Source: Candidatus Bathyarchaeia archaeon
GTDB taxonomy: Archaea > Thermoproteota > Bathyarchaeia > 40CM-2-53-6
Length of the DNA: 64,000 nt
Assembly: GCA_049517415.1 (NCBI GenBank)
Contig: JBEKSC010000002.1
Location: 64,001 to 128,000 of the forward strand
Direction of reading: 5' to 3'
Shown here: one piece after another, positions 40,208-58,927 of the stretch
Layout: every line of letters starts with the position of its first letter
Numbering within the stretch: position 1 is the stretch's first letter
Position numbers and translations under genes: made by a program
Notes under the pieces: generated by a model
Seen by the model: the letters and a program-made list of their open reading frames with translations, nothing else
Told to the model about the DNA's origin: nothing
The model's database searches: none

Positions 40208-40224
40208 GTTTGGTGCGGGGGAGG
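40208..40224 (-). repeat. att direct repeat (tRNA-Leu 3' end including CCA)
   Basis: gtttggtgcgggggagg, identical to 58834-58850. Confidence 0.88.
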
Positions 40225-40316: not shown

Positions 40317-40553
40317 ATGGGCCGTCTGGGGAATCATGCGGAGGATGGCCCAATGGAACAAATATCTACACCTCTAATCGATGAGGAACTCAGAAGACGA
40401 ACAGTAGCTAAGATACTGCTCCGGTTACAGCGATATGTTAGAGGCTACCTCCCAGATCTCCACATCGAGACAGATGAAGACTTCTCCAAGAACCCAGCGG
40501 AAGTAAAGATTAGAGTCTGGTGGAAAGATGAAAAGAGATCTGCTTCTATTTGA
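40317..40553 (+). CDS. small hypothetical protein, with a degenerate second copy at 42144-42287
   Basis: LRLQRYVRGYLPD...EDFSKNPAEVKIRVWWKDE recurs as LRLQRCVGDYLPD...EDFSKNSAEVKIRVS*KDE. Confidence 0.6.
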   Translation: MGRLGNHAEDGPMEQISTPLIDEELRRRTVAKILLRLQRYVRGYLPDLHIETDEDFSKNPAEVKIRVWWKDEKRSASI

Positions 40554-41277: not shown

Positions 41278-41282
41278 TCATT

Positions 41283-42044
41283 TCACCGAATAATCTGGTT
41301 CCAGTTTGTGCTCCTCAAAGCTGTTCGAGCAGCATTCGCAATAGTAGTTTTCTCTGTCGAGGTTATGTCGTCAGAAACCGCGTTATTTGAATTGGCTGGA
41401 TCTACAAGACGCGCACTCGGGAAGGTGTTGACAAAGTAATCAAAAACGCTGAAGACATTCGCAGCAACTTGATTCCTGTTGTATCCATGCAGAGCCTCCA
41501 AAACGGCCAATTCAAGAAGGAGGGATGGAAATTCCAGATTATTCAAGTTACGCCAAATCTTTAGGGCTTTGATTTCATCGATCCTGCCGGAGTTACTGAT
41601 TAGGTTGATGTGCGTTTGAACATTCGTCTGTGTCCATGTTTGTGTCCTGTTTCTGAAAAGGCTGTGGTCATTAGTATTGCCACTCTGCTTTCTTGCAGGA
41701 ATTAGATCCACAGAAATCCCAGAGTATCGTACATTTATTGACACGTTTTGCTTGTGCGGTGAAAGATTTTGGTTGGTCAAGAAATTAAACAAGTGGTCAT
41801 AGATTTCTTTCAGGGTCCCTGGTGTGCTTGGATCCAACGAAATGAAGAGATCAACATCAGTAGTTCCTCTGATTCCCGTATTCTTGGCATATGAGCCTGA
41901 GAAGGAAACGTCGAGAAGCGCTTTTCCTGCCCACGTTTGGATTATCGGATATACTTGTTGCGCAACTCTATAAGATGGAGAACTAGGACCGGTCGAAACG
42001 CTGTAATTTGAGATAACTGACAACACATATTCGTCAGGGGTCAA
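41283..42044 (-). CDS. CBASS cyclic oligonucleotide synthase (CD-NTase / SMODS)
   Basis: SGSYAKNT, TDVDLF, QNVSI, VDLIPA, KALKIWR, FPSLLLEL, DPANSNN; 5 bp upstream of nucC; likely TTG start at 42044. Confidence 0.9.
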   Translation of the reverse strand: MTPDEYVLSVISNYSVSTGPSSPSYRVAQQVYPIIQTWAGKALLDVSFSGSYAKNTGIRGTTDVDLFISLDPSTPGTLKEIYDHLFNFLTNQNLSPHKQNVSINVRYSGISVDLIPARKQSGNTNDHSLFRNRTQTWTQTNVQTHINLISNSGRIDEIKALKIWRNLNNLEFPSLLLELAVLEALHGYNRNQVAANVFSVFDYFVNTFPSARLVDPANSNNAVSDDITSTEKTTIANAARTALRSTNWNQIIR

Positions 42045-42309
42045 GAGATTGCAACTCTGTTCAGTCTCTAATTGTGCGACGACTGCATTTGGCTCTTTTG
42101 TAATCTTGAAGGGTATACAACTACCAAGCGGTTCTTCTCCTTGAGAAGACGAGAAGTTGTTAGAATACATCTCCGACTCCAGCGGTGTGTTGGAGACTAT
42201 CTGCCAGACGCCAGGAACGAAACGGTTGAGGACTTCTCGAAGAATTCAGCGGAAGTTAAGATCAGAGTCTCCTGAAAGGATGAGAGACAATAGCGGTTCT
42301 CAGATTCTG

Positions 42310-42921
42310 CTAGTAGGCCTTTTGTGAGAGCTCTTCCAAAGTTTTATGGAAACTCTGGTATTCTTGCATGCCTTTTTGATATAGACGCTTGCTGATCTCT
42401 TCTGTAATCTCCTCGCCCGCATTTTTCCTAATGAGGCATAAGTCGAGCAGAGTATGAAGCCACGGACGCATGAATACTTCAACCAAATTGTCCAGGCGTT
42501 GATGCGCGTCCTTACCGCTGCGAACGGAGCTACATACTAGAGCAGGAAGAGATGCTGCAAGAATCATGACATAAGCCCTGATCGCTTTTCTTTCTAGCTC
42601 AGCGGACTCATTCCCTACTCGAAGTGAATTGAAATGAGGTTTGAAGGATTCTGCTTCGTGATATAGTAACATAGAATGAACGATTTGATGATAGAGGGTT
42701 TGATATGGTTCCTTGTATGCGGCGTACTTCCTGTCAGTCTCCTTGTGATAGATCCAATCGCTTTTTTGCAGATCACGTAAGTACTGCGAAAGGATGGTTG
42801 CTGAGAAACCTGTTTCACGCTTCAACTCACCCCATGTCGCTTCCTTTTCTAGCAAAATTTGATAGATCTTAATGGCCCCTCTCCAAAGACCTTGTGCGCT
42901 CTTCTGGACCATGTGCCGCAT
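42310..42921 (-). CDS. winged-helix transcriptional regulator
   Basis: ATWGELKRETGFSATILSQYLRDLQKSDWI. Confidence 0.75.
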   Translation of the reverse strand: MRHMVQKSAQGLWRGAIKIYQILLEKEATWGELKRETGFSATILSQYLRDLQKSDWIYHKETDRKYAAYKEPYQTLYHQIVHSMLLYHEAESFKPHFNSLRVGNESAELERKAIRAYVMILAASLPALVCSSVRSGKDAHQRLDNLVEVFMRPWLHTLLDLCLIRKNAGEEITEEISKRLYQKGMQEYQSFHKTLEELSQKAY

Positions 42922-42925
42922 CCCT

Positions 42926-42955
42926 AGATAAGTTACTAAACTAACTAGCTTATCT
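42926..42955. promoter_or_regulatory. inverted repeat (putative operator) between divergent regulators
   Basis: AGATAAG-N16-CTTATCT. Confidence 0.5.
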
Positions 42956-42956
42956 C

Positions 42957-43196
42957 ATGCATAAGCGTTGCGCATCTGTTGTTCAGGCGAGATGTAAGGT
43001 GTCCAGAACCAAACATTTGGTCTACTGGAATGTTCCAGTACCAAAGCCGCTTGACAAAGCTGTAGAAGACGCAGTCGAATATGATTCGCACGTTTCAAAA
43101 AGCGACTTGATCCGCGAAGCTGTCAGAGAGAAGCTCGAGAAAATGGGGGTCAAAGTGGTTGTCATCCAAGCTTCTGGAGGGGAGAAGCGTCAGTGA
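42957..43196 (+). CDS. ribbon-helix-helix (CopG) protein
   Basis: WNVPVPKPLDKAVEDAV....SKSDLIREAVREKL. Confidence 0.8.
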   Translation: MHKRCASVVQARCKVSRTKHLVYWNVPVPKPLDKAVEDAVEYDSHVSKSDLIREAVREKLEKMGVKVVVIQASGGEKRQ

Positions 43197-43368
43197 AGAG
43201 GTGTACGACCATTTGCCTCGATGGCGCCGTATCGTTCACGATTTGGCCGTCGAAGCTGGCCTCAAAAAATTCGTGAAGCCATCAGACAGTGACATTGGTA
43301 AATCAAGCGGTAGTTCCGACTCTTCTGCTTCCGAAAACCAACCTGACGGCACGGAGAGTGCGACATGA

Positions 43369-43614
43369 TTGCATAAGAAAGGACAAGAGAGTACGCGTCC
43401 ATCGATCAATCACTACTTGAAAGGCAACGTAATGCTGACCAGAAAAGCCGTTCTTAGACCCTATGAGAGTTGCACGGTGAGTTTGATGTTAGAATTCGCC
43501 CTGAATGAGTCCGATCACGTCACAGAGAGTCAGAAGCTGATGAATTTGATCGACCAGATCGTTGGGATGGCGAAGGAAAAATGGGGTCCAGAAACAAGGC
43601 TAGCATTTCGATGA
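43369..43614 (+). CDS. small hypothetical mobile-element protein
   Basis: 81-aa ORF in a tightly packed run of small co-oriented ORFs. Confidence 0.5.
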   Translation: MHKKGQESTRPSINHYLKGNVMLTRKAVLRPYESCTVSLMLEFALNESDHVTESQKLMNLIDQIVGMAKEKWGPETRLAFR

Positions 43615-43790
43615 CGTTCACAAAATACACAGGCAGACACGCGAAAATGGAAAGAACAGTGCAAGTCAGATTCAGTGCTGACAAGTCTTCGTTCATCGAG
43701 ATCGCCTCAAGGGCGATTAAGATTCTCAACGACTACGTCACATATGCGAGACTAAGGCGCAGACGCTGATGAAAGACTGAGTGCAGGATC

Positions 43791-44972
43791 TTGGCGAAGA
43801 ATAGACGGTCAAAATGCCGTCCGAAGAGGGTTACAAATCTAAATCGATATAGAGGGAACGCAGAGGAAACAGCGGGAAAGGCAGAGGGTCGAACCAACAA
43901 TCCTTGGCCTGAAGTGGGCGAACCGCTCGACTACGATTCTGATGAGTACTTATACCGAAAGGTTCGCGATTTCATCCATAATCATATCGATATTGCCAAC
44001 GAATCATGGTACGATGTCCTATCGTGCTTTGTGATGGAGACTTGGATATATTACAGGTTCAATACGGCTCCTTACGTAGCCTTCATAGGCGAAGTGGAAA
44101 CCGGCAAGACAGATGCCTTGATGACTCTGAGTCGGCTATGTCGAAAGGGCATCGTTATCGATCGTCCTACGAGCGGCAGCTTATCCAGGCTTACGTCAAA
44201 AGAAGAACCGACGATACTTCTCGACAACGTTGACAAAATCACGAAGGGAGATCAAATTGACATAGCCTCTATTCTCGAGTCCGGATACAAGAAAGGAATC
44301 AAGATACCGAGAACGGTCGGTTGGCAGAGTGCAGACTACGGTTTGCTCATGCTAAATATATTCGGTCCAAGGGCTTTCGCTGCAAATAGAGAGTTCACGG
44401 AGAAATCAATGCAGAGCCGATGTCTTACGATACCCATGAGCAAGAACGTGAGAAAAGTAGAACGCCCAATTAATGAACAAAGCGCGCATGAACTCAGACG
44501 CATGCTGCTTATGTGATCTCAAAGACACAGAAATGATCACTTCTCACAACCTGATTTCACGCGCTTCAAGAGCAGCAGGCTTTGCGAGATAATGCACCCG
44601 CTGTTTTCCGTCGCCCCTACCGACGCAGCGAAATGAGCCCTAGCAAAGATTGGCGAGAGTGAGGATACCGAACGCGAATCTGAATCTGGAAACAGTCTGG
44701 ACAGTGACACCGTCAAGGCGATTGTTCAGCTTGCCGGAATTGAGAGCGAAAAGTCGTTCACTATCCAAGATGTAAGAAGACCTTTACAGGCTCAAGGTTA
44801 CGCAAACGACATAATCAATGACCAAAAAATCGGCCGAATGCTTAAGGAATTGGGGTGCATGCGCGTTCGCAAGGGTTCAGGTAGCAATAGGAGACGTTCC
44901 TACATACTCCCGAAAAGGAACCGTAGAAGGCTGATTTTCGCCTACGGAATCAGAGACTCGGATGCAGCTTAA
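43791..44972 (+). pseudogene. replication-associated P-loop protein (DUF3631-like) with two in-frame TGA stops
   Basis: TWIY..F...PY..F.GEVETGKT, TILLDN, ILESGYKKG, SRC..IPM; the frame continues past TGA 44514-44516 and TGA 44634-44636 to a C-terminal wHTH-like IGRMLKELG and TAA at 44972. Confidence 0.72.
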
Positions 44973-45060
44973 CTGTTCCATAAAGAAATGCTAACTAGGG
45001 CTGAAAGGCTCAACTCCATTCGCAAAGACTTTGCCATCCAAGGTGGATACCTACCTTAAG

Positions 45061-45490
45061 GACGTCCATGACGTCCAAGATGTCCACGATTCAAGAGAAT
45101 AGCCCGCTCAAGGTAACAACACCGTGTCAAAATATGAGATCCCCCATCATGAAATCCACCATTTTGAACCGCCTTGCCGCTCGCCGCCTGTTTTGGGCTG
45201 AAGATTAAGCTGCTGTTTAACGGCTGTTGCTGTTTTGGTTCGTAGGCATAACCTAACTTCCGAGACCGCGGGTATCGCGGCGAGCTAGGATTAGTTTTAA
45301 TTTTAAGATTAACCGCTAGTCTAAATTGTAATATCAAGCCGCCGAGTAATCTCTTACTTCAAATCAGAAACAGTAGCCAGTCACAGGCGGCGAAGGCGAG
45401 CGGCGGTGCAGGCATGGGGATTTCGGAACTGGGATTCGCTATTTCAGAAGCTATGGGCAATGGGCCAGTATCATGGACATCGTGGACATC
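45061..45490. repeat. inverted clusters of 9-bp GAYGTCCAH repeats around an AT-rich core (putative origin)
   Basis: three copies at 45061-45087 and two inverted copies at 45473-45490. Confidence 0.6.
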
Positions 45491-45721
45491 GCGGGCGGTA
45501 AGTCACACCAAAGATAATATCCAAAGTGTGTCAGCAACAGCAAGCAATCTCGCTCCTTCCCGAAGTCTTCTCCGCTAAACCCAAGCAATGTAATGGTGGG
45601 GCAGCTGGGATTTGAACTACAGATGCTAACCATGGCAACTGAAGCGCCTTCTCCAAAAGGCTCCACAGTCTAGCCCACATCTTTATGTGCAGTTGCCACG
45701 AACCCCTCCCCGGGACATGCG

Positions 45722-47698
45722 TTGTCAAAACAGCAGTCTCTGACCACGCCTTGGGATCCGCTGTCAGAAGAGGTAGACCAAGAAATATATGGTGCCACCC
45801 TTAAGCGTGAAATCAAGAACATCATCAAATCCTACACTGGATGGTTCGATCCTCTATCCGAGCTTATCCAAAATGCACTTGACGCGGTCGATGAACGCAA
45901 GCGTATCGAGAAGGACTTCTTGCCTAAGCTGTGGATAGAAATCAATTTGAAAGACAATTACGTGTGCGTAACCGATAACGGAATAGGTTTCACTGAGACA
46001 CAATTTAGGAGCTTCCTCCGCCCCAATGTATCCTTCAAGGGTGGTGGTACTCGCGGAGACAAGGGAGTAGGTGTAACTTATCTTGCATATGGATTTAATT
46101 CTCTTCAATTAGGAACGAAAACAAGTGACTTTTCGTACGTCGGAGATATCAAGGGTGGAAGAGAATGGGTAGAGGATGAAAAGAACATTAAACCGCGCCC
46201 AACAGTGCGCGCTTCCACGCCTATTCACAGCGCTTTCGGAGGAATCGATCGCGGCTCCACTTTCTGCCTGAGACTGACGGGAGATTACATTCGACCAAGT
46301 AATCTAACTTGGTCAGGAGCCGAAACTTGTGATCAATGGGAGACGATTCTTAGGATCAAGACTCCTCTAGGCGGCACATATCTTGATCGACCGAAGACTG
46401 AGACTGTTTGCGTCCTGAAGGTCGTCAACACAGGTGGAACGTATCAGGAGAAGACTGTCAAGAATTGTGAATACTATTACCCACACACTGTAGTCAGCAC
46501 GTGTGTTGATTTGAGAGACATCATAAGAACTCAAACAGAACTTACCGCGAAGGGAAAGAGCGTTACCAAACTGCCCGAACACTTTTACAAGCTTAATGGC
46601 ATTTACTCGTTTTGGAGTAATGCCGATCTCGTCAGCGGAAAAGGTCTCCCGCTTAATTTGAAGGACCCCGAGAAAGAACTGATCAAGAAATACGGCATTT
46701 CAGCGTACGGATTCTTCACATACACTGTTGACGTGTGGGACGAATTCAACGACAATATCGTTAAACTGAGAAAAGGCATGAGAATCATGCGCGGCGGATT
46801 ACAACTAGCAACGAACGGGATGCCACAAGGCGAATTGATTCTAATACCGCTCACTCGAAACATTGGATATCAACACAACTCGCATGTACTTGTCCACTTT
46901 GCTCTCGCTGAACCAGATCTTGGCAGAAAAGGGTTCCAACCTGAACTTGAAGAGTTGGCCGAAAGAATTGCGGTATCTATCGTTGAGCTTCTCCTAGACT
47001 GGAAATCCCATCTAAAGTCAACTACTGGCGTCACCCCCCAAATCACTCAAGACAAAGAGATTCACACTTGGAAATCCGAAATGGAACAACATGAGAAGAC
47101 CTCGCCTCTGATAATCAATAGAAAAGACATCTTTCTCCCGACGAATGAGGTTGCTCTCACAGCTACACCGATGGTCGAACAAGACGTTGTCTCGCTTTTC
47201 AATCAGCTTCTAGCGGGAGGTGTGATAAGAGGAATAAAGCTGATGTCAGCGAGCCAGCATAAGCAATACGATGGCCTGTGGAAGGGCTATATGAAGAAAC
47301 CATTTGAGCATTACCTGTTTGATAAGGGAAAGAATCCCCTAGGTGTCGACCAAGCAACTCCGACCGAATTTGAGTCGCCCCCTTACGTCTTGGAGTACAA
47401 ATACAACTTCGACGCTTTGCTCGAAGAGATCGAACAGGGCGAAAAAGATCCATCAGCAATCGGCCTAGTCGTCTGCTGGGAGATGGGAGACAGTTGGAAG
47501 AAGAAATACAGTGTCACACCGCTCCTTCACTTCTCGAATCTTCAGCATAGGGACGTTCACGGAGTAACACATTTGATCCAAGATGCGGCGACAGGGAAGT
47601 ACACTATTCGAGCAGTCATTTTGAAAGAACTCATTGAATTCCTCAACGATCCTGACGGTGTGCAGGATTATCAGAAGCAGAAATACATGGAAGATTAA
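45722..47698 (+). CDS. GHKL (MORC/Hsp90-like) ATPase with a C-terminal PD-(D/E)xK-like nuclease domain
   Basis: ELIQNALDA, DNGIG, GDKGVG, GST; C-terminal EQDVVSLF...YDG...VLEYK...VVCWE. Confidence 0.78.
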   Translation: MSKQQSLTTPWDPLSEEVDQEIYGATLKREIKNIIKSYTGWFDPLSELIQNALDAVDERKRIEKDFLPKLWIEINLKDNYVCVTDNGIGFTETQFRSFLRPNVSFKGGGTRGDKGVGVTYLAYGFNSLQLGTKTSDFSYVGDIKGGREWVEDEKNIKPRPTVRASTPIHSAFGGIDRGSTFCLRLTGDYIRPSNLTWSGAETCDQWETILRIKTPLGGTYLDRPKTETVCVLKVVNTGGTYQEKTVKNCEYYYPHTVVSTCVDLRDIIRTQTELTAKGKSVTKLPEHFYKLNGIYSFWSNADLVSGKGLPLNLKDPEKELIKKYGISAYGFFTYTVDVWDEFNDNIVKLRKGMRIMRGGLQLATNGMPQGELILIPLTRNIGYQHNSHVLVHFALAEPDLGRKGFQPELEELAERIAVSIVELLLDWKSHLKSTTGVTPQITQDKEIHTWKSEMEQHEKTSPLIINRKDIFLPTNEVALTATPMVEQDVVSLFNQLLAGGVIRGIKLMSASQHKQYDGLWKGYMKKPFEHYLFDKGKNPLGVDQATPTEFESPPYVLEYKYNFDALLEEIEQGEKDPSAIGLVVCWEMGDSWKKKYSVTPLLHFSNLQHRDVHGVTHLIQDAATGKYTIRAVILKELIEFLNDPDGVQDYQKQKYMED

Positions 47699-47967
47699 GT
47701 TCTAAAATCGTGCGTGCCTCTGAAGTGTTCGTCGCAGTAAAAAACCTCCGATATGTAGAGTTTCAGCCTAGCGACTTTTCGTTCGCAATCTCGGAAATCA
47801 CAGAATTTCATGAATTAGAAAGGGGATTTGTAAGAAGAAAAATCTCGGGAGCTCGTAGGCTCCTTGCGCTACATATGCTAGCAGTAGCAAAATTGATTTA
47901 GTGATCTGATGAATTCTCTAGCTCACAGAGGATTACTAGATATTGCCATTGTAATGGGTGCGGACAT

Positions 47968-48933
47968 ATGAGAGCACTTGACCTTTTTTGTGGTGCAGGT
48001 GGTCTCTCTTTGGGATTCAAGAAGGCCAAGTTTGAAGTAACAGGCGTGGACGTAAATAATGCAGCCAAAGAGACATTCGAACTGAATAGGATTGGCAAGT
48101 TTATCACAGCGGACCTTTCAAGCGAAACAATCGATGGGGATTATGACATAATATTAGGCGGACCACCGTGCAAACCTTGGGCAACAATTAACACAACACG
48201 AAGGGGCAGTTATCATCCGGATTACAAGCTCCTGACTCGGTTCTTTGATCATGTCATAGCTGCAAAGCCGCGCGCATTTCTGATGGAGAACGTCCCCACT
48301 CTGCGGAACCAACTGATCCTCAAGAGACAACTAGAAAGAGTCCGTGAAGTTGGGTACACATTTGTCAGTCAGTCAATAAGATATAGTGAATTCGGCGCAC
48401 CAACGAGTAGACGTCGCCTAATGATTTTCGGAGCGAGAAAGGGAGATAGGAAATGTAATGGCCAGATGAACAAAGCAGAACGTTTCTTCAAGAATCTTAC
48501 GTCGCAGCAGACTGACCCAACAACTGTACGGAATGCGATCTGGTACCTTCGCAACAAAGGCAAGAATGAAGCACCAGATCATCAATGGCCGGACCTGAAA
48601 ACTATTGACAAATACCGTAAGTTTTATGAGACGGGTAAGTACGGCTGGTACATTCTCAAATGGAACGAACCCTCGCATTCATTTGGTAATGTTCTGAAGA
48701 CATACGTTCTTCATCCTGATTCCTTCAACGGAGGAATTACGCGAGTAATTTCTGTAAGAGAAGCCTGGCGGCTGCTAGGATTCAACAAAGGTTTCAGATT
48801 GCCACAGAAAATAGGAATGGAAATGAAGTACCAACTGGCGGTCGACGCAGTCAGTCCCTGTTTCTCTTGGCGGGCAGCAAGAGCTGCCAAGGAGGTGCTG
48901 AATCCAGATGACTCGAGGGATGACTTCAACTAA
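47968..48933 (+). CDS. C5 cytosine DNA methyltransferase (DrmMII-like)
   Basis: DLFCGAGG, GGPPC, MENV, RRR, RVISVREA.RL.GF. Confidence 0.94.
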   Translation: MRALDLFCGAGGLSLGFKKAKFEVTGVDVNNAAKETFELNRIGKFITADLSSETIDGDYDIILGGPPCKPWATINTTRRGSYHPDYKLLTRFFDHVIAAKPRAFLMENVPTLRNQLILKRQLERVREVGYTFVSQSIRYSEFGAPTSRRRLMIFGARKGDRKCNGQMNKAERFFKNLTSQQTDPTTVRNAIWYLRNKGKNEAPDHQWPDLKTIDKYRKFYETGKYGWYILKWNEPSHSFGNVLKTYVLHPDSFNGGITRVISVREAWRLLGFNKGFRLPQKIGMEMKYQLAVDAVSPCFSWRAARAAKEVLNPDDSRDDFN

Positions 48934-49582
48934 GCGTGCTGAGTTTAGAGAAAAACTTCTGGTATGGTGGAAAGATAATAGGAGAAATTATCCATGGAGA
49001 GATACTCGGAACCCGTACAGAATACTCGTATCTGAGATTTTCCTGCATCGCACGAGAGCAGATCAAGTAGCTCCTGTTTACACTGAGTTCATCAAAGAGT
49101 TTCCGACTGTTCAACATCTGTCGAAGGCAAGACAAGCCCAAGTGACGAGAATACTTCGTCCTCTTGGGCTGATCTGGAGAAACAAACTCCTCAAACCACT
49201 GGCCAGGGAAATTGTTTCTTCTCACAATGGCAGGATTCCTTCCACAACATCGCAGCTGGAATCACTGCCTGGAGTCAGCAAGTACATAGCGGCTGCCGTG
49301 AGTTGTTTTGCTTTCGGGAATGTGGAACCACTACTGGATACAAACACCGTGAGAATTCTGGGAAGAATGTTCGGTTTAATCGTCAATGACGGCTCGAGAA
49401 GGAGCGACAAGTTCTCAGAAATTTATACGTCACTGATTAAAGTCGACGAACCTCGATACTTCAATTATGCAATGGTCGATTTGGGTGCTCTCGTCTGCTC
49501 AGCGAGAGACCCCGCATGTCAAATTTGTCCGGTGAACGATATGTGCAATTACGGAATATCAAGGTTAGGTAGATCCAAGTGA
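48908..49582 (+). CDS. HhH-GPD DNA glycosylase, MIG/TDG-type T:G mismatch glycosylase
   Basis: PWR.TRNPY, SEIFLHRT, PLGL, LPGVSKY, LDTN, C..RDP.C..CP....C; lacks the MutY C-terminal domain. Confidence 0.82.
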   Translation: MTRGMTSTKRAEFREKLLVWWKDNRRNYPWRDTRNPYRILVSEIFLHRTRADQVAPVYTEFIKEFPTVQHLSKARQAQVTRILRPLGLIWRNKLLKPLAREIVSSHNGRIPSTTSQLESLPGVSKYIAAAVSCFAFGNVEPLLDTNTVRILGRMFGLIVNDGSRRSDKFSEIYTSLIKVDEPRYFNYAMVDLGALVCSARDPACQICPVNDMCNYGISRLGRSK

Positions 49583-52500
49583 GAGAGATATTCTTCACAG
49601 AGCTCGTTAGACAGGTCCTAGGCCCGAGCACTGGACCCACTGAATCAATGGACAAAGATCCACGCAACGAGTATGTGACAGGTATACTTGAGCCCAGGGA
49701 TTACGACAGAGGACACTTGGAAAACTACGGCAACGCAGACATCGGCATGTTCATCCCTGAAGAGGAACACGAGGAAGACGACTCTGATGTCGCAAATGAT
49801 TTCGGCGGCATTCCGACGAACCTTGACCCCTACGCGTTTCCCAAGAGTATGGGTGTTTCATTTGTTGTGTGCTCCGAAAGCAAGCCGATGGTTGATTTCT
49901 GTGTAACTTGGGCGCGCTATAACAGAGAGAACAATCTTTGGCGAAGAAAACCCGACAAATTGATCGAGCATGGTTTCGATATTTCGCAAACAGAGCCCAA
50001 GCGATGGGTACCATCGTCCGGGGTCCAAGTCGTTCTACGCAGCAAGCAGCAAAGTAATAATGCATGGCACGTGTCTATTTTTATCATCAACACCACGAAA
50101 GTCAAAGAAAAATTCCTTGATACGTCCGAACTGATTTTTCAACCACAGATTCGCGTCCATTTTCACGACGATGTGATGTCTCTACCCGTGGACAGAAGGC
50201 GATTCTCAGAGGACGAAGAAGGACAGCTGGAGCTGCTTTACGCCAATTTGCAGTGCCTCGCCAGAGGACATATGTGTGGTGCTACATGGCGGCAGATCGA
50301 CCCGGAGAGACCATTCGCAGGGAACGCTGGAGACTCCGCATTTCTCCCCGAAGACATAAAACAACTTCCACCAATAGAACGTACATTATTTGTCAATCCA
50401 GACGTTCGAAGCGAATTCCTGCCTTCATACACCGTTACACAAACAACTATGGAGGCACAAGAGATCAGCGAATTGAAAAAGGATGCAGATGCGTCTCTGC
50501 TTTCTGAAATGTGGGATTTCACGCAACTGTCGAAACCCCTGAAGGCGATAGCGGATGAGTATGAGAGATGGATTGAGAAGCAGAAAACAACTGGTATCGG
50601 ACTCGACAAGCCTTCGCGCAATATCGCAGAAACAAATCTCGTCAAATGTGATACGTCACTGAAGCGCATGCGTGAAGGTATTGAGCTGCTGCAGAAAGAT
50701 GATGTCAGACTAGCTTTCTGCTTCATGAACCAGGCCATGAATATCCAATCAAACTGGACTAGATCCCAGAATCTGATTTGGAGGCCGTTTCAGCTTGCAT
50801 TTATTCTGCAATGCATTCCGAGCCTCGAATCGAAAACTCACCGCGATAGAAGAGTCTGCGATCTCCTGTGGTATCCTACAGGAGGGGGGAAAACCGAGGC
50901 ATATCTGGGCCTGATGATCTTCACACTCGCGCTTCGCAGGATCAGAAACACCCAGAGCCCACTCGCAGGAGGTGGAACTGCGATCTTCTCTAGGTATACT
51001 CTGAGACTTCTCACGATTCAACAGTTCAGGCGAACGCTTGCCGTGATAACCGCGTGTGAATATTTGAGAACGCTCAACTGGAAGCCGTCCGGAACGATGT
51101 CTGAACAGAAGAACCTCTGGGGTGGACAGAGGTTTTCAGTCGGCCTCTGGGTTGGAGCTAATGTCACACCCAACAACATCGTGGACAGAAGTGGCTGGGA
51201 TAACCGATTGAACCTCAACAGGAGGTATATCGGAGCGGTTGGTATTCTCAAGTACGCGCACAAAAAGGCGGGAGGACCGAGCGAGCAAATAATCTATCAG
51301 GGTGAAGAACCTGCTCAGGCTCTCAAGTGTCCAAGTTGCGCGACAGTTCTCGCAGTGCCATCAATCGGCCTTACCGGAAAGGAGCACGAAATATACTGGG
51401 TAATCCGGGCCAGCTCGAAACCACCAGAAGATTCGGCTGCTCTTAGCTACAAGCAGTTCAGCGTCAAACAGGTAACGGTGAGAAATCTCCCTCAACCAGG
51501 ATTCTTTGTCCTACACGTCAAGTTTTCCATATCTTCCAACAGGCTGGTAGATGACAGTCTCAATGAATGGAGATTCCATGTCGAGAAGACACTGCAGTGC
51601 AAGTTTGAGTGCTCAGTTGCCAGCAGACCAGGATATTTCATTCGACCCGCGCCGGACGTTTACAAACGCCCTGTCGATTTCGAGATACGCTGCCCGAATC
51701 CAGATTGCAAGCTCAATTCAGTGAATTGGCAGGAGATGGTTCCATCTGCTGCTGGTACGGCGTTCTGCGTCCCACTTGAGCCTTTCGCAATCCCCGGGAA
51801 CGGAAATGCTTCGCACGGGATACCCATTCCTGCCTATACAGTGGACGCTCAGATCTACGCCCGATGCCCTTCCATAATCATAGCTACGGTAGACAAGTTC
51901 GCCAGACTGCCCTTCGAGCCACGCGCTTCTTCTCTCTTTGGCAATGTTAACAAATACGATTCGCTGTGGGGATATAACAGAGACGTGTCACCTCCTGATA
52001 CGGGAAAAGCGAAACCCGGGAAATCAGTTCCTGTTGGCCGGTTCGACCCTCCTGAACTCATCGTACAGGATGAACTTCACCTCATTGAGGGACCTCTCGG
52101 CAGCATGGTTGGGCTATATGAGACCGCTGTCGACACTCTGGCAACGAGTTGGAAAGACGGGGCACCTGTCATTCCAAAGTACATAGCATCCACAGCAACA
52201 ACAAAACAGGCACTCACTCAGATTATGTCATTGTTCAACAGGGGATTGCATCAGTTTCCTCCTGCTGGTCTAAACGCACTGGACAACTTTTTCGCAAGTG
52301 GTGAGGAAGGGCACCCACTTGATGATAAGGCAGGAAGGCTCTACGTCGGAGTTTGCTGTCCCGGAAAAGGGCCACAGACTCCTACTGTCAGAATCTGGTC
52401 CAGTTTGTTGCAGGGAGCAGAACGAATCAAGAAATCGCCGGGTGATTTATCCGAACTTCAGCATTACTGGACAGTTGTTGGATACTTCAACGCTATCCGT

Positions 52501-53400
52501 GAACTCGCTGCTGCAAGAGCGCTGTACAGGCAAGACATTCCCGACTGGATAAAACAAATGGACGGTGCGGCAAATGCACGCTCAATCGATGATACGAACA
52601 TGCTAGAGCTTCACAGCAATGTTGGATCAGCAGAGGTCTCCGCGGTGCTTGAAAGATTAGAAAAGGAAGCGACGATTGATGCTGTCATGGCAACTTCGAT
52701 GTTCGGCACTGGCGTGGACATCGACAGGCTTTCGTTGATGATTGTGCATGGTCAACCAAAGACAACTGCGAGCTACATTCAGGCCACAGGGCGTGTAGGA
52801 AGAAAAAAAGCCGGCCTTGTTGTCACGTTTCTGAGGTCAACTCGCCCACGGGACCTTGACCACTACGAGTTTTTCACAGGCTACCATCGTGCTCTTCACA
52901 AGTACGTCGAGCCCGTTACAGTCGCACCATTCTCCACGCGAGCGTGTGATCGAGCGCTCGGTCCAGTAGCCGTCGCAATACTTCGCAATGGAATATTGGT
53001 TGAGACAGTAGGCATCGATCCATCGTGGGCGCCAGAAAGCGAATACTGGAAGAAGGCTACGAGTCAAAGTGGTTCCAGATTGATGAGAACCAACAAAAAC
53101 GCGCCGGAGCTTCACATTATTGCCGGGAATTTCGATACTCGCGCGGAGAACCAGCCAGGGAGCAGGAAAAGGGCAAAGAACGCTACTAAGAATGATATTG
53201 AGTCTTTCTATGAAAAATGGGAGAATGTGGCGAAGATGGAGCCGAACCTGTTGTACTCTGAACCCTCTTTCAATTATGTACCCGACAATGCTGTGGTTCT
53301 CGGAGATGAGCAGCACCTGCAACACAAGAAGCGCGTTGTAGCCGAGAACACCCCGCAGTCAATGCGAGAGATGGAGTCAACAACGAGGTTCAGTGGTTAG
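49579..53400 (+). CDS. drmA: DISARM helicase DrmA
   Basis: FQPQI, WRPFQLAFIL, PTGGGKTEAYLG, RYTLRLLTIQQF, ATVDKFA, QDELH, GPLGSMVGLYE, YIQATGRVGR, RPRDLDHYE. Confidence 0.92.
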   Translation: MREIFFTELVRQVLGPSTGPTESMDKDPRNEYVTGILEPRDYDRGHLENYGNADIGMFIPEEEHEEDDSDVANDFGGIPTNLDPYAFPKSMGVSFVVCSESKPMVDFCVTWARYNRENNLWRRKPDKLIEHGFDISQTEPKRWVPSSGVQVVLRSKQQSNNAWHVSIFIINTTKVKEKFLDTSELIFQPQIRVHFHDDVMSLPVDRRRFSEDEEGQLELLYANLQCLARGHMCGATWRQIDPERPFAGNAGDSAFLPEDIKQLPPIERTLFVNPDVRSEFLPSYTVTQTTMEAQEISELKKDADASLLSEMWDFTQLSKPLKAIADEYERWIEKQKTTGIGLDKPSRNIAETNLVKCDTSLKRMREGIELLQKDDVRLAFCFMNQAMNIQSNWTRSQNLIWRPFQLAFILQCIPSLESKTHRDRRVCDLLWYPTGGGKTEAYLGLMIFTLALRRIRNTQSPLAGGGTAIFSRYTLRLLTIQQFRRTLAVITACEYLRTLNWKPSGTMSEQKNLWGGQRFSVGLWVGANVTPNNIVDRSGWDNRLNLNRRYIGAVGILKYAHKKAGGPSEQIIYQGEEPAQALKCPSCATVLAVPSIGLTGKEHEIYWVIRASSKPPEDSAALSYKQFSVKQVTVRNLPQPGFFVLHVKFSISSNRLVDDSLNEWRFHVEKTLQCKFECSVASRPGYFIRPAPDVYKRPVDFEIRCPNPDCKLNSVNWQEMVPSAAGTAFCVPLEPFAIPGNGNASHGIPIPAYTVDAQIYARCPSIIIATVDKFARLPFEPRASSLFGNVNKYDSLWGYNRDVSPPDTGKAKPGKSVPVGRFDPPELIVQDELHLIEGPLGSMVGLYETAVDTLATSWKDGAPVIPKYIASTATTKQALTQIMSLFNRGLHQFPPAGLNALDNFFASGEEGHPLDDKAGRLYVGVCCPGKGPQTPTVRIWSSLLQGAERIKKSPGDLSELQHYWTVVGYFNAIRELAAARALYRQDIPDWIKQMDGAANARSIDDTNMLELHSNVGSAEVSAVLERLEKEATIDAVMATSMFGTGVDIDRLSLMIVHGQPKTTASYIQATGRVGRKKAGLVVTFLRSTRPRDLDHYEFFTGYHRALHKYVEPVTVAPFSTRACDRALGPVAVAILRNGILVETVGIDPSWAPESEYWKKATSQSGSRLMRTNKNAPELHIIAGNFDTRAENQPGSRKRAKNATKNDIESFYEKWENVAKMEPNLLYSEPSFNYVPDNAVVLGDEQHLQHKKRVVAENTPQSMREMESTTRFSG

Positions 53401-53402
53401 AT

Positions 53403-55133
53403 ATGCCAGGACAGGCTCTCAGGCCATCGCAGTTCATCTACACTTTTGGAGTTGGCAGCATAATTGAAGCTCCAGGAGGCCCGAGGCTTGTCCCTGCTTT
53501 TGAGAAATGGGGGAGAGTGTTTGGTCCAGGTAGAACTCCTCCCGTTTCCATGTTTGCTATTCCAGATAGCACAAGTTCTTCACTCATTGATGACGGCCTG
53601 ATCTTTCGGATTCCCACTAACGTCGATCTGAACGAGCCAGAGAATGTGCAGGTCTTCTTTACAGAGCGTTTTCCGGAGTGGGCACTCTGCGTCCCCCACG
53701 GGTACCTCTTTCAACTTCCTAAGGATGACAGAACAAGGTGCCCCGACTGCCTGAACTCTGGTTCAACAAAATCTGCGCGACCGAAAGCAATTCGCTTCGT
53801 CAGGGCATGCCCGGAGGGTCATCTCGACGATGTGGACTGGTACGGAATCATCCATTCGTTTGGGAAAAGTTGCAACAGTACGGTTTATCGCTGGAATTCG
53901 GAGGGTGGGTCATTGCGAGATGTCGAGATTTCCTGTACATGCGGCGCAAGAAAGACCCTGCAGGATATTTACAGGGAAACAAAGCACTGCACTGGCCGAT
54001 TTCCGGAAAGTGGTACAGCTTTTTCAAGCTGTTCGAAGGAAGCAAAGGTCACACTGCGGGGTTCTTCGAGCCTTCGGATTCCCGAAGTCTTCACAACCAT
54101 CACAATCCCTCAGTTCGCATCACGACTTCATAGAATTCTAGATAGCTATCAAATGAGAACAATACTCGCAACACGAAAGGCCTGGACCAAAGCAGATTTG
54201 GTTGACGCACTGAAGAATATGTCTGAGCTCGATCCGAATCTTTTCGACCCAAGAACTATTGACGAAGTGAACACACAGACTGAGGAACGATTACTCAAGA
54301 GTATTGATGACCTGAGGCGGTTTGCACTTAACAGGCCAACAACACTTTCAGCAGTACGCGAGATGGAATTCAACGCTCTTCAAGATGCTGCGGAGAACGG
54401 CCATCCTCCTGATCCAACTTCCGAGAGCCCAGAATTCCAAGTGAACAAGTTCAAAGTAAGGAAAGACGTTCCGTTCTCGTCTCACAACTACAGAATCGCG
54501 CCGGTGGAGAGGCTCCGAGTTGTAACCGTTCAAAGAGGCTACAGGAGACTCGGAACAAACCCAGATTCCAACAAGCTGGTAAAAACCTTCTACTTTGATG
54601 GAAACAGGAAGTGGTTTCCTGGACTGGAGCAAATTGGCGAAGGGATATTCATTGACTTCGGAAAGAACAAACCGAAATTGACCTCTGAGGAGTGGAACAA
54701 CGAGTATCAAAATCGCATGGACCTGCAGTTCCATCCTGTTTTTGTTTGGTGGCATTCGCTTTCACACAGGATCATTACGGCACTCTCAATTGATTCTGGT
54801 TACTCATCTGCTGCGATAAGAGAGAGTGTCTACACAATGAAAGACCCCCGGACAGGAGACGTTTCTGGAGGCGTCCTATTCTATACCACTCAGACAGGCA
54901 CTGACGGGAGTCTGGGCGGGCTCATTTCACTTGTTCCCGAGTTCGAGACTGTTCTTTCAGCCGCCATGCGAAATTTGGATGTCTGCTCAAATGATCCACT
55001 GTGCAGCGAGATGTCAGTCAAAACCCGTGGCATCAACGGCGCTGCATGTTACGCATGCCTCCTGCTGTCAGAGACATCCTGCTCGAACAGGAATATGTTT
55101 CTGGACAGAAATCTGTTGAGAGGAAATATCTAA
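53403..55133 (+). CDS. drmB: DISARM DrmB (DUF1998 domain)
   Basis: RPSQFIYTFGVGSI, RFVRACPEGHLDD, GEGIF, HSLSH, GSLGGL, CSNDPLC...ACYAC..LSETSC. Confidence 0.92.
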   Translation: MPGQALRPSQFIYTFGVGSIIEAPGGPRLVPAFEKWGRVFGPGRTPPVSMFAIPDSTSSSLIDDGLIFRIPTNVDLNEPENVQVFFTERFPEWALCVPHGYLFQLPKDDRTRCPDCLNSGSTKSARPKAIRFVRACPEGHLDDVDWYGIIHSFGKSCNSTVYRWNSEGGSLRDVEISCTCGARKTLQDIYRETKHCTGRFPESGTAFSSCSKEAKVTLRGSSSLRIPEVFTTITIPQFASRLHRILDSYQMRTILATRKAWTKADLVDALKNMSELDPNLFDPRTIDEVNTQTEERLLKSIDDLRRFALNRPTTLSAVREMEFNALQDAAENGHPPDPTSESPEFQVNKFKVRKDVPFSSHNYRIAPVERLRVVTVQRGYRRLGTNPDSNKLVKTFYFDGNRKWFPGLEQIGEGIFIDFGKNKPKLTSEEWNNEYQNRMDLQFHPVFVWWHSLSHRIITALSIDSGYSSAAIRESVYTMKDPRTGDVSGGVLFYTTQTGTDGSLGGLISLVPEFETVLSAAMRNLDVCSNDPLCSEMSVKTRGINGAACYACLLLSETSCSNRNMFLDRNLLRGNI

Positions 55134-55657
55134 TGTCTACCGAAGATCTGGGCCCCGAGGTCGCGGTTACAGGAGACTTCTGGCTTGGCAGAGGTCTCAG
55201 GTCAATCTGGACACTTGTTAGAGACTGCATTTCCAAGGCCGAAAGTGAAATTCAGATCGCAGCGTATGCAATAGGAGAGAATTCCGACGAGTATGAATTC
55301 TTCGAATTGCTGAGAGGTGTGCTAGCGCGAGGAATTCGAGTACTGATGATTGTAAATAGGTTTTCCAATCAGCGTGGTTCTGTTCGAGATGCTCTTCTCG
55401 AACTTGCAGGGAAATATCCCAGTTTTGCGCTCAAAAGTTTCAACCCACGGGACAAAAGAGAAGACCTCCACGCCAAGCTTATTGTGGTAGATCACACGAT
55501 CGCTCTTGTCGGTTCGGCCAATCTGTCGTTCAAAGGAATGGTCGCGAATCATGAAGTAATGGTAAAGCTGTCTGGGAAGACTGCTTATTCTGTCGGTGAA
55601 CTTCTTGACAGATTATCTGCGAATTCTGAGACCATCCAAGAAGCCATAGGCAGGTGA
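55133..55657 (+). CDS. drmC: DISARM phospholipase D-family nuclease DrmC
   Basis: HAKLIVVD, GSANLS, NHE; ATG overlaps the drmB stop (TAATG). Confidence 0.85.
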   Translation: MSTEDLGPEVAVTGDFWLGRGLRSIWTLVRDCISKAESEIQIAAYAIGENSDEYEFFELLRGVLARGIRVLMIVNRFSNQRGSVRDALLELAGKYPSFALKSFNPRDKREDLHAKLIVVDHTIALVGSANLSFKGMVANHEVMVKLSGKTAYSVGELLDRLSANSETIQEAIGR

Positions 55658-55661
55658 CGCG

Positions 55662-57110
55662 ATGGAGGGTGGAAATGAACAACACCTTGCACTCCTTCTG
55701 AAGAAATTCAACCAGAAAATGTATCTCGATTATGTCGCCAAAACTGAACAGATTATCAAGAGTTGTGACGACTCATCACGGTTTACTGACCTTGAGGTAA
55801 TAAAAACCCCTGATAAAGCAGGCGACCTCGCCTTCAGAGCTGATTTCGAATTCCCCATTCACATCATGCTATCCCATCCAATCTGCACGTTCAAGTCCCA
55901 CAGGAATTATCCTGTCGGCAACAAAATGTACATAGCAAACCTCGGGCTCGTTCCGGTGTTTTTTTCCAGCGTGAACCTGATGAGCGTCCTGAAATTATGG
56001 GGCGAACGTGCGACAGGGTTCTTTAATCCCACAAATACGCCTCTTGCTGACTCCGATGCGATTTGCTGGGAGCTACCCCGCGCGTCCAAACCCGCGCAAT
56101 TCTCCAGCATGAATTTCATTTTACAAAATGGAGCAGATCCGCAGGTTGTGGACCCAACCCTGACCACTATTTTCGAGAAGTACTTTCGACTATTGTACTG
56201 GACGTTTCCGCATCAAGGTTTCTCGCCGTCCACTCACTTTCTACATGGAAATTCGAGGATCAGCTCACAGGTGAAAATATCAAAGAGTCTGTACATCGTC
56301 GAGGAGGTGAGAAACCCTTACAGATTTTCCCTCGAAGGAAAGATGATTGAAGGAACATATGTCATGCTCAGAGGGCTTAACTTAGATGGTGATAAGTTCC
56401 TCTTTCAGTCGTTTCCGGCTGTGCTGGATTCCGAATTGGCGGAACAAGTGCTTGCTCGACGGAACCTCGAATCAAGTTTCATCAACGGAGTTGTGGCTGA
56501 GGTCTCACAGCAAACGGCGAATGAACAGCAGTTCACCAAACATTCTCTTCTCACAGTGGTATCTGATTACGGAGAATCGTATTACGACATTATTTCGGCG
56601 CTAACGGGAATGATTGCTGACTCCAAGTTTGCATGCTCAGATTCGCTCAGCGAAATCGGACCCTTAGAAGACATCTCTTTGCAGGTCACCGACGCATACC
56701 GGATTATCTATAGGATGCTCAAAGTTGAGAGGTCGTTGTCCGAGGACATTAACAATGTGTTCGAGCTCGTAATCGACCAGATGTTTCCGGCACTCGTAGA
56801 AGACAATGGATTGTTGTTTTATGTTCACCCACTGGCATGGGGACTTCTAAAGAAGTGGAATTTGATCAGTTCTGAGAAAAACAAGCAGAAAGATGTTCTT
56901 CTGCATCTCATACGGCTCTTGCAGATATCGGAAACCAGCTCCTCCATGAAGGTGTATTTGGACAAAAGCTCTGACTACTTTCAGAGACTCGCTGTAAGCA
57001 AACGGGAACTCACTAGATCAGTGTATCAGCTTGCAAATGCAATTCGTCTCCTAAAAGTGATGAGAAAGATCTGGACGACAAGCCCTCAGCCGAGCATACA
57101 TCTACCTTAA
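55662..57110 (+). CDS. uncharacterised protein in the DISARM-like operon
   Basis: 482-aa ORF starting 4 bp after drmC on the same strand; no motif recognised. Confidence 0.8.
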   Translation: MEGGNEQHLALLLKKFNQKMYLDYVAKTEQIIKSCDDSSRFTDLEVIKTPDKAGDLAFRADFEFPIHIMLSHPICTFKSHRNYPVGNKMYIANLGLVPVFFSSVNLMSVLKLWGERATGFFNPTNTPLADSDAICWELPRASKPAQFSSMNFILQNGADPQVVDPTLTTIFEKYFRLLYWTFPHQGFSPSTHFLHGNSRISSQVKISKSLYIVEEVRNPYRFSLEGKMIEGTYVMLRGLNLDGDKFLFQSFPAVLDSELAEQVLARRNLESSFINGVVAEVSQQTANEQQFTKHSLLTVVSDYGESYYDIISALTGMIADSKFACSDSLSEIGPLEDISLQVTDAYRIIYRMLKVERSLSEDINNVFELVIDQMFPALVEDNGLLFYVHPLAWGLLKKWNLISSEKNKQKDVLLHLIRLLQISETSSSMKVYLDKSSDYFQRLAVSKRELTRSVYQLANAIRLLKVMRKIWTTSPQPSIHLP

Positions 57111-57182
57111 TCGTGAAAGGCCCGTCTTGGCTCGTAACGTCCATTCCTCTTGGATTCTCACTTTTGGAAAGATCTTGTTTTG

Positions 57183-57557
57183 TCAAGCAGGGACATGCCG
57201 AATGTCAATACCTAACTCTTTTGCAACCTTCCCGTATTTGCTTGCGATAAACCTGCGATATACCACTCGGTTAGTCAGCACGAGAATTCTCTTTCTTGCT
57301 TTAGTCCCTAGTAAGAGCAAGCAGTCTCTTGAAATGTCCCCGAGCGTAGCCGTACGTAGAGCCTTACTTGATAGTTTCTGCTTGTTTGGTTCCGAGGTCT
57401 TGATCTCGCCCACGATCCTTCCGTCTGCGGAAACAAAGTCGCATTCGTGTTCCTCGCCGCCTGCAAGTTTCATCTTTCTTTTCGTGAGGGGACCAAAATT
57501 TCTGCTAAGTCTCGACCTTACATCTGCTTCCTTCTTGAGCCTTTGTTGATAGTTCAA
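57183..57557 (-). CDS. small PD-(D/E)xK nuclease-like protein
   Basis: E...HECDFVSADGRIVGEIKT; SD GAGGTGA; 9 bp downstream of the integrase. Confidence 0.7.
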   Translation of the reverse strand: MNYQQRLKKEADVRSRLSRNFGPLTKRKMKLAGGEEHECDFVSADGRIVGEIKTSEPNKQKLSSKALRTATLGDISRDCLLLLGTKARKRILVLTNRVVYRRFIASKYGKVAKELGIDIRHVPA

Positions 57558-57566
57558 TTTCTCACC

Positions 57567-58779
57567 TCACAGAGCCACAGTCAACGCCATGGCCTTTAGC
57601 TTCGATCTCACAAACTCCTTGAACTCTGGATCGACAGCAAGCCTATCCATTACGTAATCGGTCTTCGACTCCTCATCATGCATTAGCATCGCTGTTCTCA
57701 CGTCCAGTGGACAGCCACAACGAGAGCAGAAACCACTAGTAGGCGAATTGACTTCCTGACAACGCGAACACGTCTTGATTCTCAACGTATGTTCTTCGCT
57801 GTTCACTTCATCTTCGGTCTTGATACCATTCAGCTTCAGCAATGCATTGTCAATATTCCGGCCTGATAGATGCACGTAGGTTGAAGCCATTCTTGAGTCA
57901 CCAACCCATCCTAGGTACTCCTTCATTTGAGCCTCAGTTAGGACGTTGGCGAGGTTTGAGGCTCTCGCATGTCTGAAGGAGTGAGGATTAACACGTTTGC
58001 CTATCTTAGCTCTTGAGGCTGTGACAGACAGCATCTTTCTGAACGCGTAGTATTCGAGTGGCTTTGTTGACCCAGCAGATTCGAAGCTGGTCCACAAAGG
58101 CGATTCGGGATCAAGTCTTGATGGATGATGGTTCAACCAATCCGACAGTGCCTTCGCTGAGAAGATTATTCGCACCCTACGTGGACCCGTTTTCCCCTTC
58201 ACAATCATGACCGCTCCGTGCGTGTCGAATTGTACGTCATCGACTTTCAGGGTGAGTATCTCTCCCACTCTGCATCCTGTCTCGTACAGAACGAGTATTA
58301 GCGCCCGGTCTCGCTGGTTCTGACAGATCTCAGCCAATTTCTTGACTTCGTCCTCTGTTAGAAGATGTTCGGGCAGGACCTTGTGATTATTGTTCCGCCT
58401 TGCTCTTATCCATTTTACTTCAACCGGATAATCGTCTTCAGAGTTTCGTAGCCATTTGTAGAATCTTGATGCATTGCTTTTCAGACAGTTTCGTATCGTA
58501 TGCTGTGTCTTGTTTCTCGAGGTCGGATATTACTCGGATCATGTCAGTTTTGGTTGTGCGTCTGAATTCTTTGCTTAGTAGGCTGGAGAGTTTCCTGAGC
58601 ACGTAGGTGCACCTTACCTGTGTAGGTGTGCTTAGTCCTTCGGCTCGTATGTATTCTAGAAATTGTTTGATTTTCTTGCGGTTGCTCTCGAGAACTTTCT
58701 TGTCATTTTCGAGGTTTGACAGCGCCGCTGTTAGTCTTTGATCGTAGTGGTGAATATCGAAGGCTACCTGCTGGTTCAT
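57567..58779 (-). pseudogene. tyrosine integrase with a C-terminal Zn ribbon, frameshifted near 58465
   Basis: ETGCRVGE, KGKTG, HSFRHAR, LGW, STYVH, CSRC..CSRC; the N-terminal ORF 58438-58779 leaves the frame at IK|RFYKWL. Confidence 0.88.
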
Positions 58780-58803
58780 GGCTGAAAATTCTTAGAAGGG
58801 CCG

Positions 58804-58809
58804 ATATAA
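58804..58809 (-). promoter_or_regulatory. TATA box of the integrase gene
   Basis: TTATAT about 25 nt upstream of the ATG at 58779. Confidence 0.5.
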
Positions 58810-58836
58810 GTAAGGAAGCGAACTGAATCTTAAGTT

Positions 58837-58927
<91 letters not shown>

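Follow-up and report, generated by a model that had tools for sequence, protein, structure and literature searches.

A DISARM operon of the long-DrmA branch with a conserved accessory protein on an integrated island of a Bathyarchaeia archaeon

The locus and the question

[quoted passage not shown] The question is raised by positions 45722 to 57557 of a 64,000-nucleotide stretch of Candidatus Bathyarchaeia archaeon (GenBank assembly GCA_049517415.1, contig JBEKSC010000002.1, positions 64,001 to 128,000 of the forward strand), referred to here as the window. An initial annotation had described eight genes there and proposed a distinct DISARM subtype. All eight open reading frames (ORFs) were located at their coordinates and strands in the ORF listing of the window (8/8), and the tightly coupled, co-oriented series of six that had been described (methyltransferase, glycosylase, drmA, drmB, drmC and the 482-aa gene, whose product we call U482) is present. 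Read from the DNA, the methyltransferase and glycosylase genes overlap by 26 bp and the glycosylase gene and drmA by 4 bp, drmA and drmB are separated by 2 bp, drmB and drmC overlap by 1 bp, and a gap of 4 bp lies between drmC and the U482 gene. The genome holding the window (G000) is 100% complete with 6.9% contamination, and a single contig of 18,702 bp covers positions 40162-58863 without one differing letter in 4/4 runs, which may themselves be the source of the window.

The operon is a DISARM of the branch with a long DrmA, real and intact, that falls outside both class I and class II, and the novelty of the locus resides in U482 and not in the GHKL gene, the core itself not being new. 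The probable reading, in our view, is a DISARM-type defence operon on an integrated island, with U482 as a single-stranded DNA (ssDNA) binding partner in the place of DrmE or DrmD. Gene content, coupling, predicted fold, co-inheritance and selection are what has been observed, and from them we infer defence, DNA binding and the partnership of U482.

A DISARM core outside both classes

DrmA (49579..53400, + strand, 1273 aa, the long form) scored 1335 bits against the model NF038326 (DISARM_DrmAL, cut-off 999); Walker A, Walker B and motif VI are intact, and in the alignment with 7s9v there is an acidic loop where the trigger loop sits. DrmB (53403..55133, + strand, 576 aa, a DUF1998/MZB protein matching PF09369) is encoded by a separate gene right after drmA and reached 429 bits against NF038324 (cut-off 240). 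DrmC (55133..55657, + strand, 174 aa) is a bare phospholipase D (PLD) protein with a single HKD motif, a predicted nuclease that matched PDLC02614 with an E value of 6e-40 and, against the longer NF038319 model of class I, scored less than the cut-off (67.5 vs 133). It is without the N-terminal extension found in the usual form of 235-270 aa, and H113, K115 and D120 are invariant across an alignment of 32 rows. Its start is most likely the ATG at 55133, rather than the GTG at 55001, because most homologues begin at that position. The linked C5 cytosine DNA methyltransferase (47968..48933, + strand, 321 aa, PF00145) is a match to the DrmMII model PDLC02655 (E 1e-102), with its catalytic motifs intact. 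Since curated models exist for the long DrmA, the short DrmC and this methylase, the core had already been seen by curators. In a DrmA tree of 39 rows (FastTree) the long forms make up one clade (support 100).

The components that define the two classes are missing. No ORF for a SNF2-type DrmD or for the adenine methylase DrmMI was found at the locus in the ORF list and the PADLOC scan, and nowhere in G000 does a DrmD exceed the cut-off, the five partial matches to NF038317 elsewhere in the genome being all far below it. DrmE (NF038316) had no match in G000 or in five other genomes that bear the operon (6/6 negative). The view that this DISARM belongs to neither of the two classes has thus been borne out. 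The proposal of a distinct subtype holds for a variant with U482 as its conserved accessory and fails for the GHKL gene, which is probably a separate passenger, so that the system is smaller than had been proposed.

Other arrangements were seen among the loci compared. In L027, L028 and L091 a DrmA-DrmB fusion of 2155-2181 aa is followed by drmC and a U482 gene, and in three genomes of the phylum (L029, L030 and L031) a short DrmA-DrmB is followed by a ResIII-type helicase of 1040-1190 aa, with no drmC.

A conserved accessory gene next to drmC

U482 (55662..57110, + strand, 482 aa), like the 124-aa ORF further downstream, gave no match in PADLOC, Pfam, NCBIfam or PHROGs, and what can be said of it comes from gene context, substitution rates, fold searches and a structure model. 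A word search returned 47 homologues; at 50% identity the family has 144 representatives, with lengths of about 450-560 aa for those that are full-length. All the family members whose organism was read are archaeal, including a Thaumarchaeota metagenome-assembled genome, Nitrosopumilus and Cenarchaeum, and none was found in plasmids or in the viral contigs searched. These named relatives suggest a host among the Thermoproteota. A fused form was looked for as well and found in none of the 144 representatives, the sole candidate, a match of 1023 aa, being a 36-residue repeat match.

Once identical proteins and a single split ORF had been merged, the family counted 36 distinct loci. The gene is located directly 3' of drmC in 24 of them (seven were first found via DrmA searches), head-to-head with a second cassette in 11, and as a broken orphan in one; 35/36 adjoin a cassette, or the remnant of one, of a YprA-type helicase, DUF1998 and PLD. 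A metagenome scan led by U482 gave a similar division of 31 loci, i.e., 17 after drmC (one an identical copy of the window's island), 13 facing the second cassette and one uninformative. Within the phylum, 7/401 genomes have the gene, five after drmC, one in the second context and one as a broken orphan. The initial annotation had taken the 482-aa protein for an accessory or effector part, and its recurrence in other archaeal drmABC loci, two thirds of the family loci (24/36) having it directly after drmC, supports a conserved accessory.

The second cassette consists of a split YprA helicase of about 800 aa (best model DpdJ), a DUF1998-PLD fusion of about 785 aa and an N6/N4-type methylase of about 490 aa; its helicase has only short motifs in common with DrmA. 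It was seen with a divergently transcribed U482 homologue in L049, L050, L052-L059, L061-L063 and L072.

In a tree of 29 full-length U482 rows, rooted at the midpoint and leaving out eight short or partial rows, the proteins of the second context group together in a single clade (96/95), lying among those linked to DISARM. The U482-bearing loci of the DrmA tree fall into two subclades that match the main splits of the U482 tree, with the same deep clade of four loci and the same clade around the window's locus in both. From these sequences one gain followed by losses would fit the history of the linkage, and so would two gains. The ratio of nonsynonymous to synonymous substitution rates (dN/dS) of U482 is 0.13 for the window compared with G034 and with L038, and 0.24 for G034 compared with L038, the values for DrmA, DrmB and DrmC being 0.03-0.09. 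At the level of sequence, U482 is under purifying selection.

The predicted fold of U482

The model of U482, built from 46 sequences, has a pLDDT of 85 and a pTM of 0.88. It predicts two oligonucleotide/oligosaccharide-binding (OB) folds (residues ~58-180 and ~189-305), a winged helix (~305-389) and a helical C-terminus, of which residues 390-471 are barely covered by the fold comparison. The top Foldseek rows were single-stranded DNA-binding protein (SSB), RPA70 and the baculovirus protein LEF-3. Taken by parts, the first OB fold (residues 58-171) aligns with Pyrococcus RPA (8oej) at Z 7.3 and a root-mean-square deviation (rmsd) of 2.9 over 97 residues, the second (189-304) with PriB/SSB (3en2) at Z 8.8 and rmsd 3.1 over 89 residues, and residues 305-389 with a cullin winged helix at Z 7.8 and rmsd 1.9 over 65 residues. 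The two OB folds gave no sign of having arisen by internal duplication (probability 1.8%). Conservation is mainly of aromatic and basic residues, Pro, Ser and Asn, with no prominent acidic catalytic cluster.

What U482 shares with proteins of the RPA, SSB and CST type (Pyrococcus RPA 8oej, RPA70 1jmc, PriB and Stn1) is a tandem of OB folds with a winged helix after it. The differences are an identity of about 10%, the absence of any Pfam hit, another orientation of the domains and the extra helical C-terminus. None of 71 members matched an RPA or SSB family of Pfam (0/71 at E 0.01), no Pfam or PADLOC family recurs across the same 71, and matches in the ESM Atlas were all <0.8. On the model, U482 is at best RPA-like in working, and any homology to that family would be remote. 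An accessory protein of DISARM with OB folds was not described in the literature searched, which was mostly titles and openings of abstracts with subscription journals largely missing.

A working model and what weighs against it

Put together, the parts suggest the following sequence of events. The C5 methyltransferase would mark the host DNA as self, and the Mig-type glycosylase, judging by its family and key residues, would repair the T:G mismatches left by deamination of 5-methylcytosine (5mC). DrmA-DrmB would load on invader DNA that is single-stranded or has a 5' overhang and unwind it, by homology to the DrmAB of Serratia, described as requiring ssDNA or a 5' overhang (PMC9142583). The bare PLD protein DrmC is the candidate nuclease that would cut. 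U482 would occupy the place held by DrmE or DrmD in the known classes, its two OB folds most likely binding the ssDNA on which the helicase loads or which it makes, and its winged helix and helical end binding a partner protein or duplex DNA. In effect it would be an RPA dedicated to this system, sensing ssDNA, holding it or passing it on.

A wider version of this model takes the whole U482 family as defence-dedicated, RPA-like ssDNA sensors that archaea have joined to two unrelated defence lineages with YprA helicases, one the long-DrmA DISARM with a C5 methylase and the other the split helicase with the DUF1998-PLD fusion and an adenine-type methylase. This remains a tentative proposal, which we would sooner doubt than accept. 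The same accessory family in two helicase lineages points to a shared and definable job. If it were true, U482 would pick the ssDNA handed to helicase and PLD, and so be the missing link from DrmAB loading to DrmC cleavage. As a test case the locus is compact, its PLD protein being bare and its one non-enzymatic accessory having a recognisable fold. U482 can also serve as a marker for finding archaeal DISARM loci, which are probably under-counted, since loci of this type are without the required gene of both PADLOC DISARM types.

Several observations weigh against giving U482 this role. The Z values of 7-9 are common for small beta-barrels, are moderate and indicate fold rather than function, and the TM-scores over the whole chain are just 0.1-0.2. 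OB folds also bind RNA, double-stranded DNA, metals and proteins, and there is a match to SilF at Z 8.1. The DrmA and U482 trees conflict on the exact placement of L026, a long branch, and many of the drmC-linked loci come from related organisms and are therefore non-independent. A long DrmA is found without U482 in 3/8 of the long-DrmA genomes of the phylum sample, and U482 is absent at 17/17 long-DrmA loci from bacteria and other archaea among the matches listed, three of which end too early to tell. At short-DrmA loci it was not found either (0/54 in the genome scan, among the matches listed). Being absent from many long-DrmA loci, U482 is therefore a lineage-specific accessory, outside the minimal long-DrmA system.

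In an alternative reading U482 is a defence or regulatory gene (e.g., an independently acting sensor or a transcription regulator) which hitch-hikes with YprA cassettes and works outside their pathway. Its being dispensable in bacterial long-DrmA loci, its divergent transcription in the second context and its winged-helix domain would all fit, and so would L055, where a deletion (L055:8494-10009) fuses the 5' part of the helicase gene to the 3' part of the methylase gene, destroying the cassette, and the U482 homologue is intact. However, U482 lies within a few bases of drmC and has been co-inherited with DrmA across deep splits, and the sole partner-less copy seen, that of G122, is a fragment with an internal stop. 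We consider hitch-hiking unlikely and keep the partner role as the preferred reading.

Methylase and repair gene

The glycosylase (48908..49582, + strand, 224 aa) is a HhH-GPD protein with a [4Fe-4S] cluster loop and without the C-terminal domain of MutY. Its closest solved relative is Mig.MthI (1kea, E 1e-42), with MutY almost tied (2e-42). With Mig.MthI it shares the size, the [4Fe-4S] loop, the catalytic Asp, the equivalents of Tyr126, Arg47 and Ala50 and the linkage to a C5 methylase, the difference being a Tyr at the position of Leu187. At the two specificity positions, described as Val45 and Gln182 in MutY and as Ala50 and Leu187 in Mig (PMC2714593), it has Ala and Tyr, the latter in place of a Gln or Glu. 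The enzyme is Mig-like, with T:G repair as its predicted activity. As to the methylase, the avoidance of palindromes in G000 is mild (GATC 0.79, CCWGG 0.80) and insufficient to assign a target.

Among the U482 loci with visible flank a C5 methylase is present in 12/13, the contig of the thirteenth stopping inside the glycosylase gene, and a repair gene in 10/13, of the Mig type in six and Vsr in four. The methylases fall into a group of 56-59% identity and another of 24-34%, and the modification module has therefore been exchanged between loci. Mig, Vsr or methylase-glycosylase fusions recur at bacterial loci with long and short DrmA. Either Mig or Vsr can fill the place of the repair gene. 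A built-in enzyme for repair after 5mC deamination, as had been suggested, agrees with the Mig-like residues and the 1kea match, but it is not distinctive of this locus, given that repair genes recur at bacterial DrmA loci.

Fusions of glycosylase and C5 methyltransferase of about 645-690 aa were seen beside bacterial DISARM loci in L075, L081, L094, L115 and L134, and G000 itself has a second C5 methylase adjoining a HhH-GPD glycosylase (G000:C16, ~37900-39700).

The GHKL gene and the 124-aa ORF

The gene upstream of the operon (45722..47698, + strand, 658 aa) encodes a GHKL ATPase, the HATPase domain being matched in 28/28 homologues, with a C-terminal PD-(D/E)xK-like pattern formed by the family's invariant residues E486, D517, E558 and K560; the putative nuclease domain rests on these motifs. 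It had been read as a MORC-like ATPase-nuclease that forms part of the system. In its strongest form the idea would be an eight-gene subtype with this protein as effector, perhaps a restriction enzyme cognate to the methylase. The gene does lie next to the operon in the same orientation, drmA is directly adjoined by GHKL genes of other families in the bacterial loci L074 and L086, with such genes close by in L024 and L089, and a member of the gene's own family faces an operon of C5 methylase, McrB-like, Vsr and short-DrmA genes on a plasmid (L149). However, 269 bp separate its 3' end from the start of the methyltransferase gene, to which it is uncoupled, and it is missing in the five other DrmABC+U482 genomes (0/5), including three single-contig genomes and G034, whose DrmA is 77% identical. 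It is also absent at L038, whose visible flank reaches 2.3 kb upstream of the methylase, from 400 other genomes of the phylum (0/400), and from the other long-DrmA loci save the identical copy of the window's island.

The family is large (1348 matches, and a cluster of 1946 members, 95% bacterial) and was found in 1/201, 0/201 and 1/301 genomes of three other phyla. Seven distinct loci were read, four with the gene stand-alone (three among phage tail genes and one chromosomal) and three with it near a C5 methylase. These three loci, and the GHKL genes of other families adjoining or neighbouring drmA, do show that GHKL nucleases are loosely tied to loci with a C5 methylase, but the gene of the window is not an orthologous component. 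An effector role in the operon is on these grounds distinctly improbable, and the claim that the protein belongs to the system found no support. The sequence comparisons favour an island passenger, probably a stand-alone defence gene.

In L154, L155 and L156 a member of the GHKL-nuclease family stands alone among prophage tail genes, presumably P2- or Mu-like, as a candidate single-gene defence for which there is no PADLOC model. A known system of similar build is VcSduA (Shedu type I-D), described as one gene with GHKL and a PD-(D/E)xK-like C-terminus that is independent of its neighbours (PMC12137116); the GHKL gene of the window has this build and would probably share the independence. Unlike Shedu, the family has no DUF4263 match (0/28 homologues, Pfam, E 0.05), and PADLOC gave no Shedu hit.

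The small convergent ORF on the other side (57183..57557, - strand, 124 aa), with a PD-(D/E)xK-like motif read by eye, had been noted as a small nuclease following the six genes. It lies 9 bp behind the integrase gene on the same strand, has four relatives besides itself and is missing from the other DISARM loci read. It is separate cargo, outside the operon.

The island

The operon is located inside an integrated island of 18.6 kb bounded by a 17-bp direct repeat (40208..40224 on the left and 58834..58850 on the right, an exact repeat), which occurs only twice in G000 and resembles the 3' end of a tRNA, as in an attachment (att) site. The right copy is inside 60 bp that match the 3' half of a tRNA-like sequence at another place in the genome; neither ARAGORN (default settings) nor Rfam called a tRNA there. 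Besides the operon, the island carries a tyrosine integrase, a broken replication-type ORF and a pair of genes of CBASS (cyclic oligonucleotide-based antiphage signalling system). The integrase gene (57567..58779, - strand; PF00589 and N-terminal SAM-like matches) is split by a frameshift into two ORFs, as read in three frames, and no indel variant was found in the four runs. Neither an excised circle nor an empty site was found in the contigs of these runs. The island is now probably immobile. A long DrmA above the cut-off is present in only 2/61 close genomes, and with this patchy distribution the island is to be regarded as accessory DNA.

The CBASS genes (40546-42170, - strand), at the left end of the island, are a minimal pair of CD-NTase and NucC (PDLC00803 and PDLC00745). 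The ORF at 43791-44990 (+ strand) has a Walker-A-like motif and runs past in-frame stops into a winged-helix-like tail; it probably once served the island's replication and has since decayed. A degenerate tRNA-like remnant (~45594-45680, - strand) lies immediately upstream of the GHKL gene and may mark an older integration boundary; over 24-28 bases its 3' end matches several tRNA-like ends of the genome at 88-92%. In G000 there are many places with 3' halves like those of leucine tRNAs, of which ARAGORN at its default settings recognises few, pointing to unusual introns or to numerous att remnants.

Comparison with known systems

Class II DISARM has been described as DrmA, DrmB, DrmC and DrmE together with DrmMII (PMC9252829). 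The window shares with it DrmA, DrmB, DrmC and the C5 methyltransferase, by curated models, and the tight drmA-drmB-drmC order, which raises the alternative that this is ordinary class II DISARM with U482 as an extremely divergent DrmE. All four of these proteins do match curated DISARM models. But a profile of 71 U482 sequences compared with the two proteins that pass the DrmE cut-off gave probabilities of 0.8% and 0.1% (a supposed DrmE alignment, A5, was discarded, 3/5 of its rows being UvrD helicases), U482 has ~480 aa against ~800 and sits after drmC and not before drmA, and no protein of the DrmE family was found in the operon genomes, all of which makes the alternative very improbable. 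The initial annotation had allowed for class II DISARM beside an unrelated gene: the GHKL gene does fail to co-occur with drmABC elsewhere, but U482 is not DrmE (probability <1%). Besides having no DrmE, the window's locus differs from class II by its long DrmA, by a DrmC without the N-terminal extension, by U482 after drmC and by the Mig or Vsr repair gene found at most loci of the U482 type.

A cassette for DNA repair or island maintenance (a MrfA- or Hrq1-like helicase with nuclease, SSB and glycosylase) has very little chance of being the right description, since, although YprA helicases are described as including repair enzymes (10.1101/2025.09.15.676423) and an SSB-like protein and a glycosylase would fit, DrmA falls in with the DISARM models, the locus has a patchy distribution and sits next to CBASS on an integrated element, and methylases have been swapped between loci, as in restriction-modification systems.

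The class I DrmAB of Serratia (7S9V/7S9W), as described in PMC9142583, has in common with the window the helicase core, the acidic loop at the position of the trigger loop and a separate DUF1998 subunit. In contrast, the window's locus has neither a SNF2 DrmD nor an adenine methylase, and its DrmA is without the first 136 residues of the Serratia protein, described as an EVE-like domain (10.1101/2025.09.15.676423).

The Dpd system also differs. No match to DpdA, DpdB, DpdC or the fused DpdJ was found among the 15 island proteins scanned, there are no deazaguanine genes, drmA and drmB are separate in the window, and the U482 members match no PADLOC Dpd model (0/71). What is shared with Dpd is the bare PLD protein without the four-helix bundle, the fusion of DrmA and DrmB in L027, L028 and L091, and the helicase of the second U482 context, for which DpdJ is the best model.

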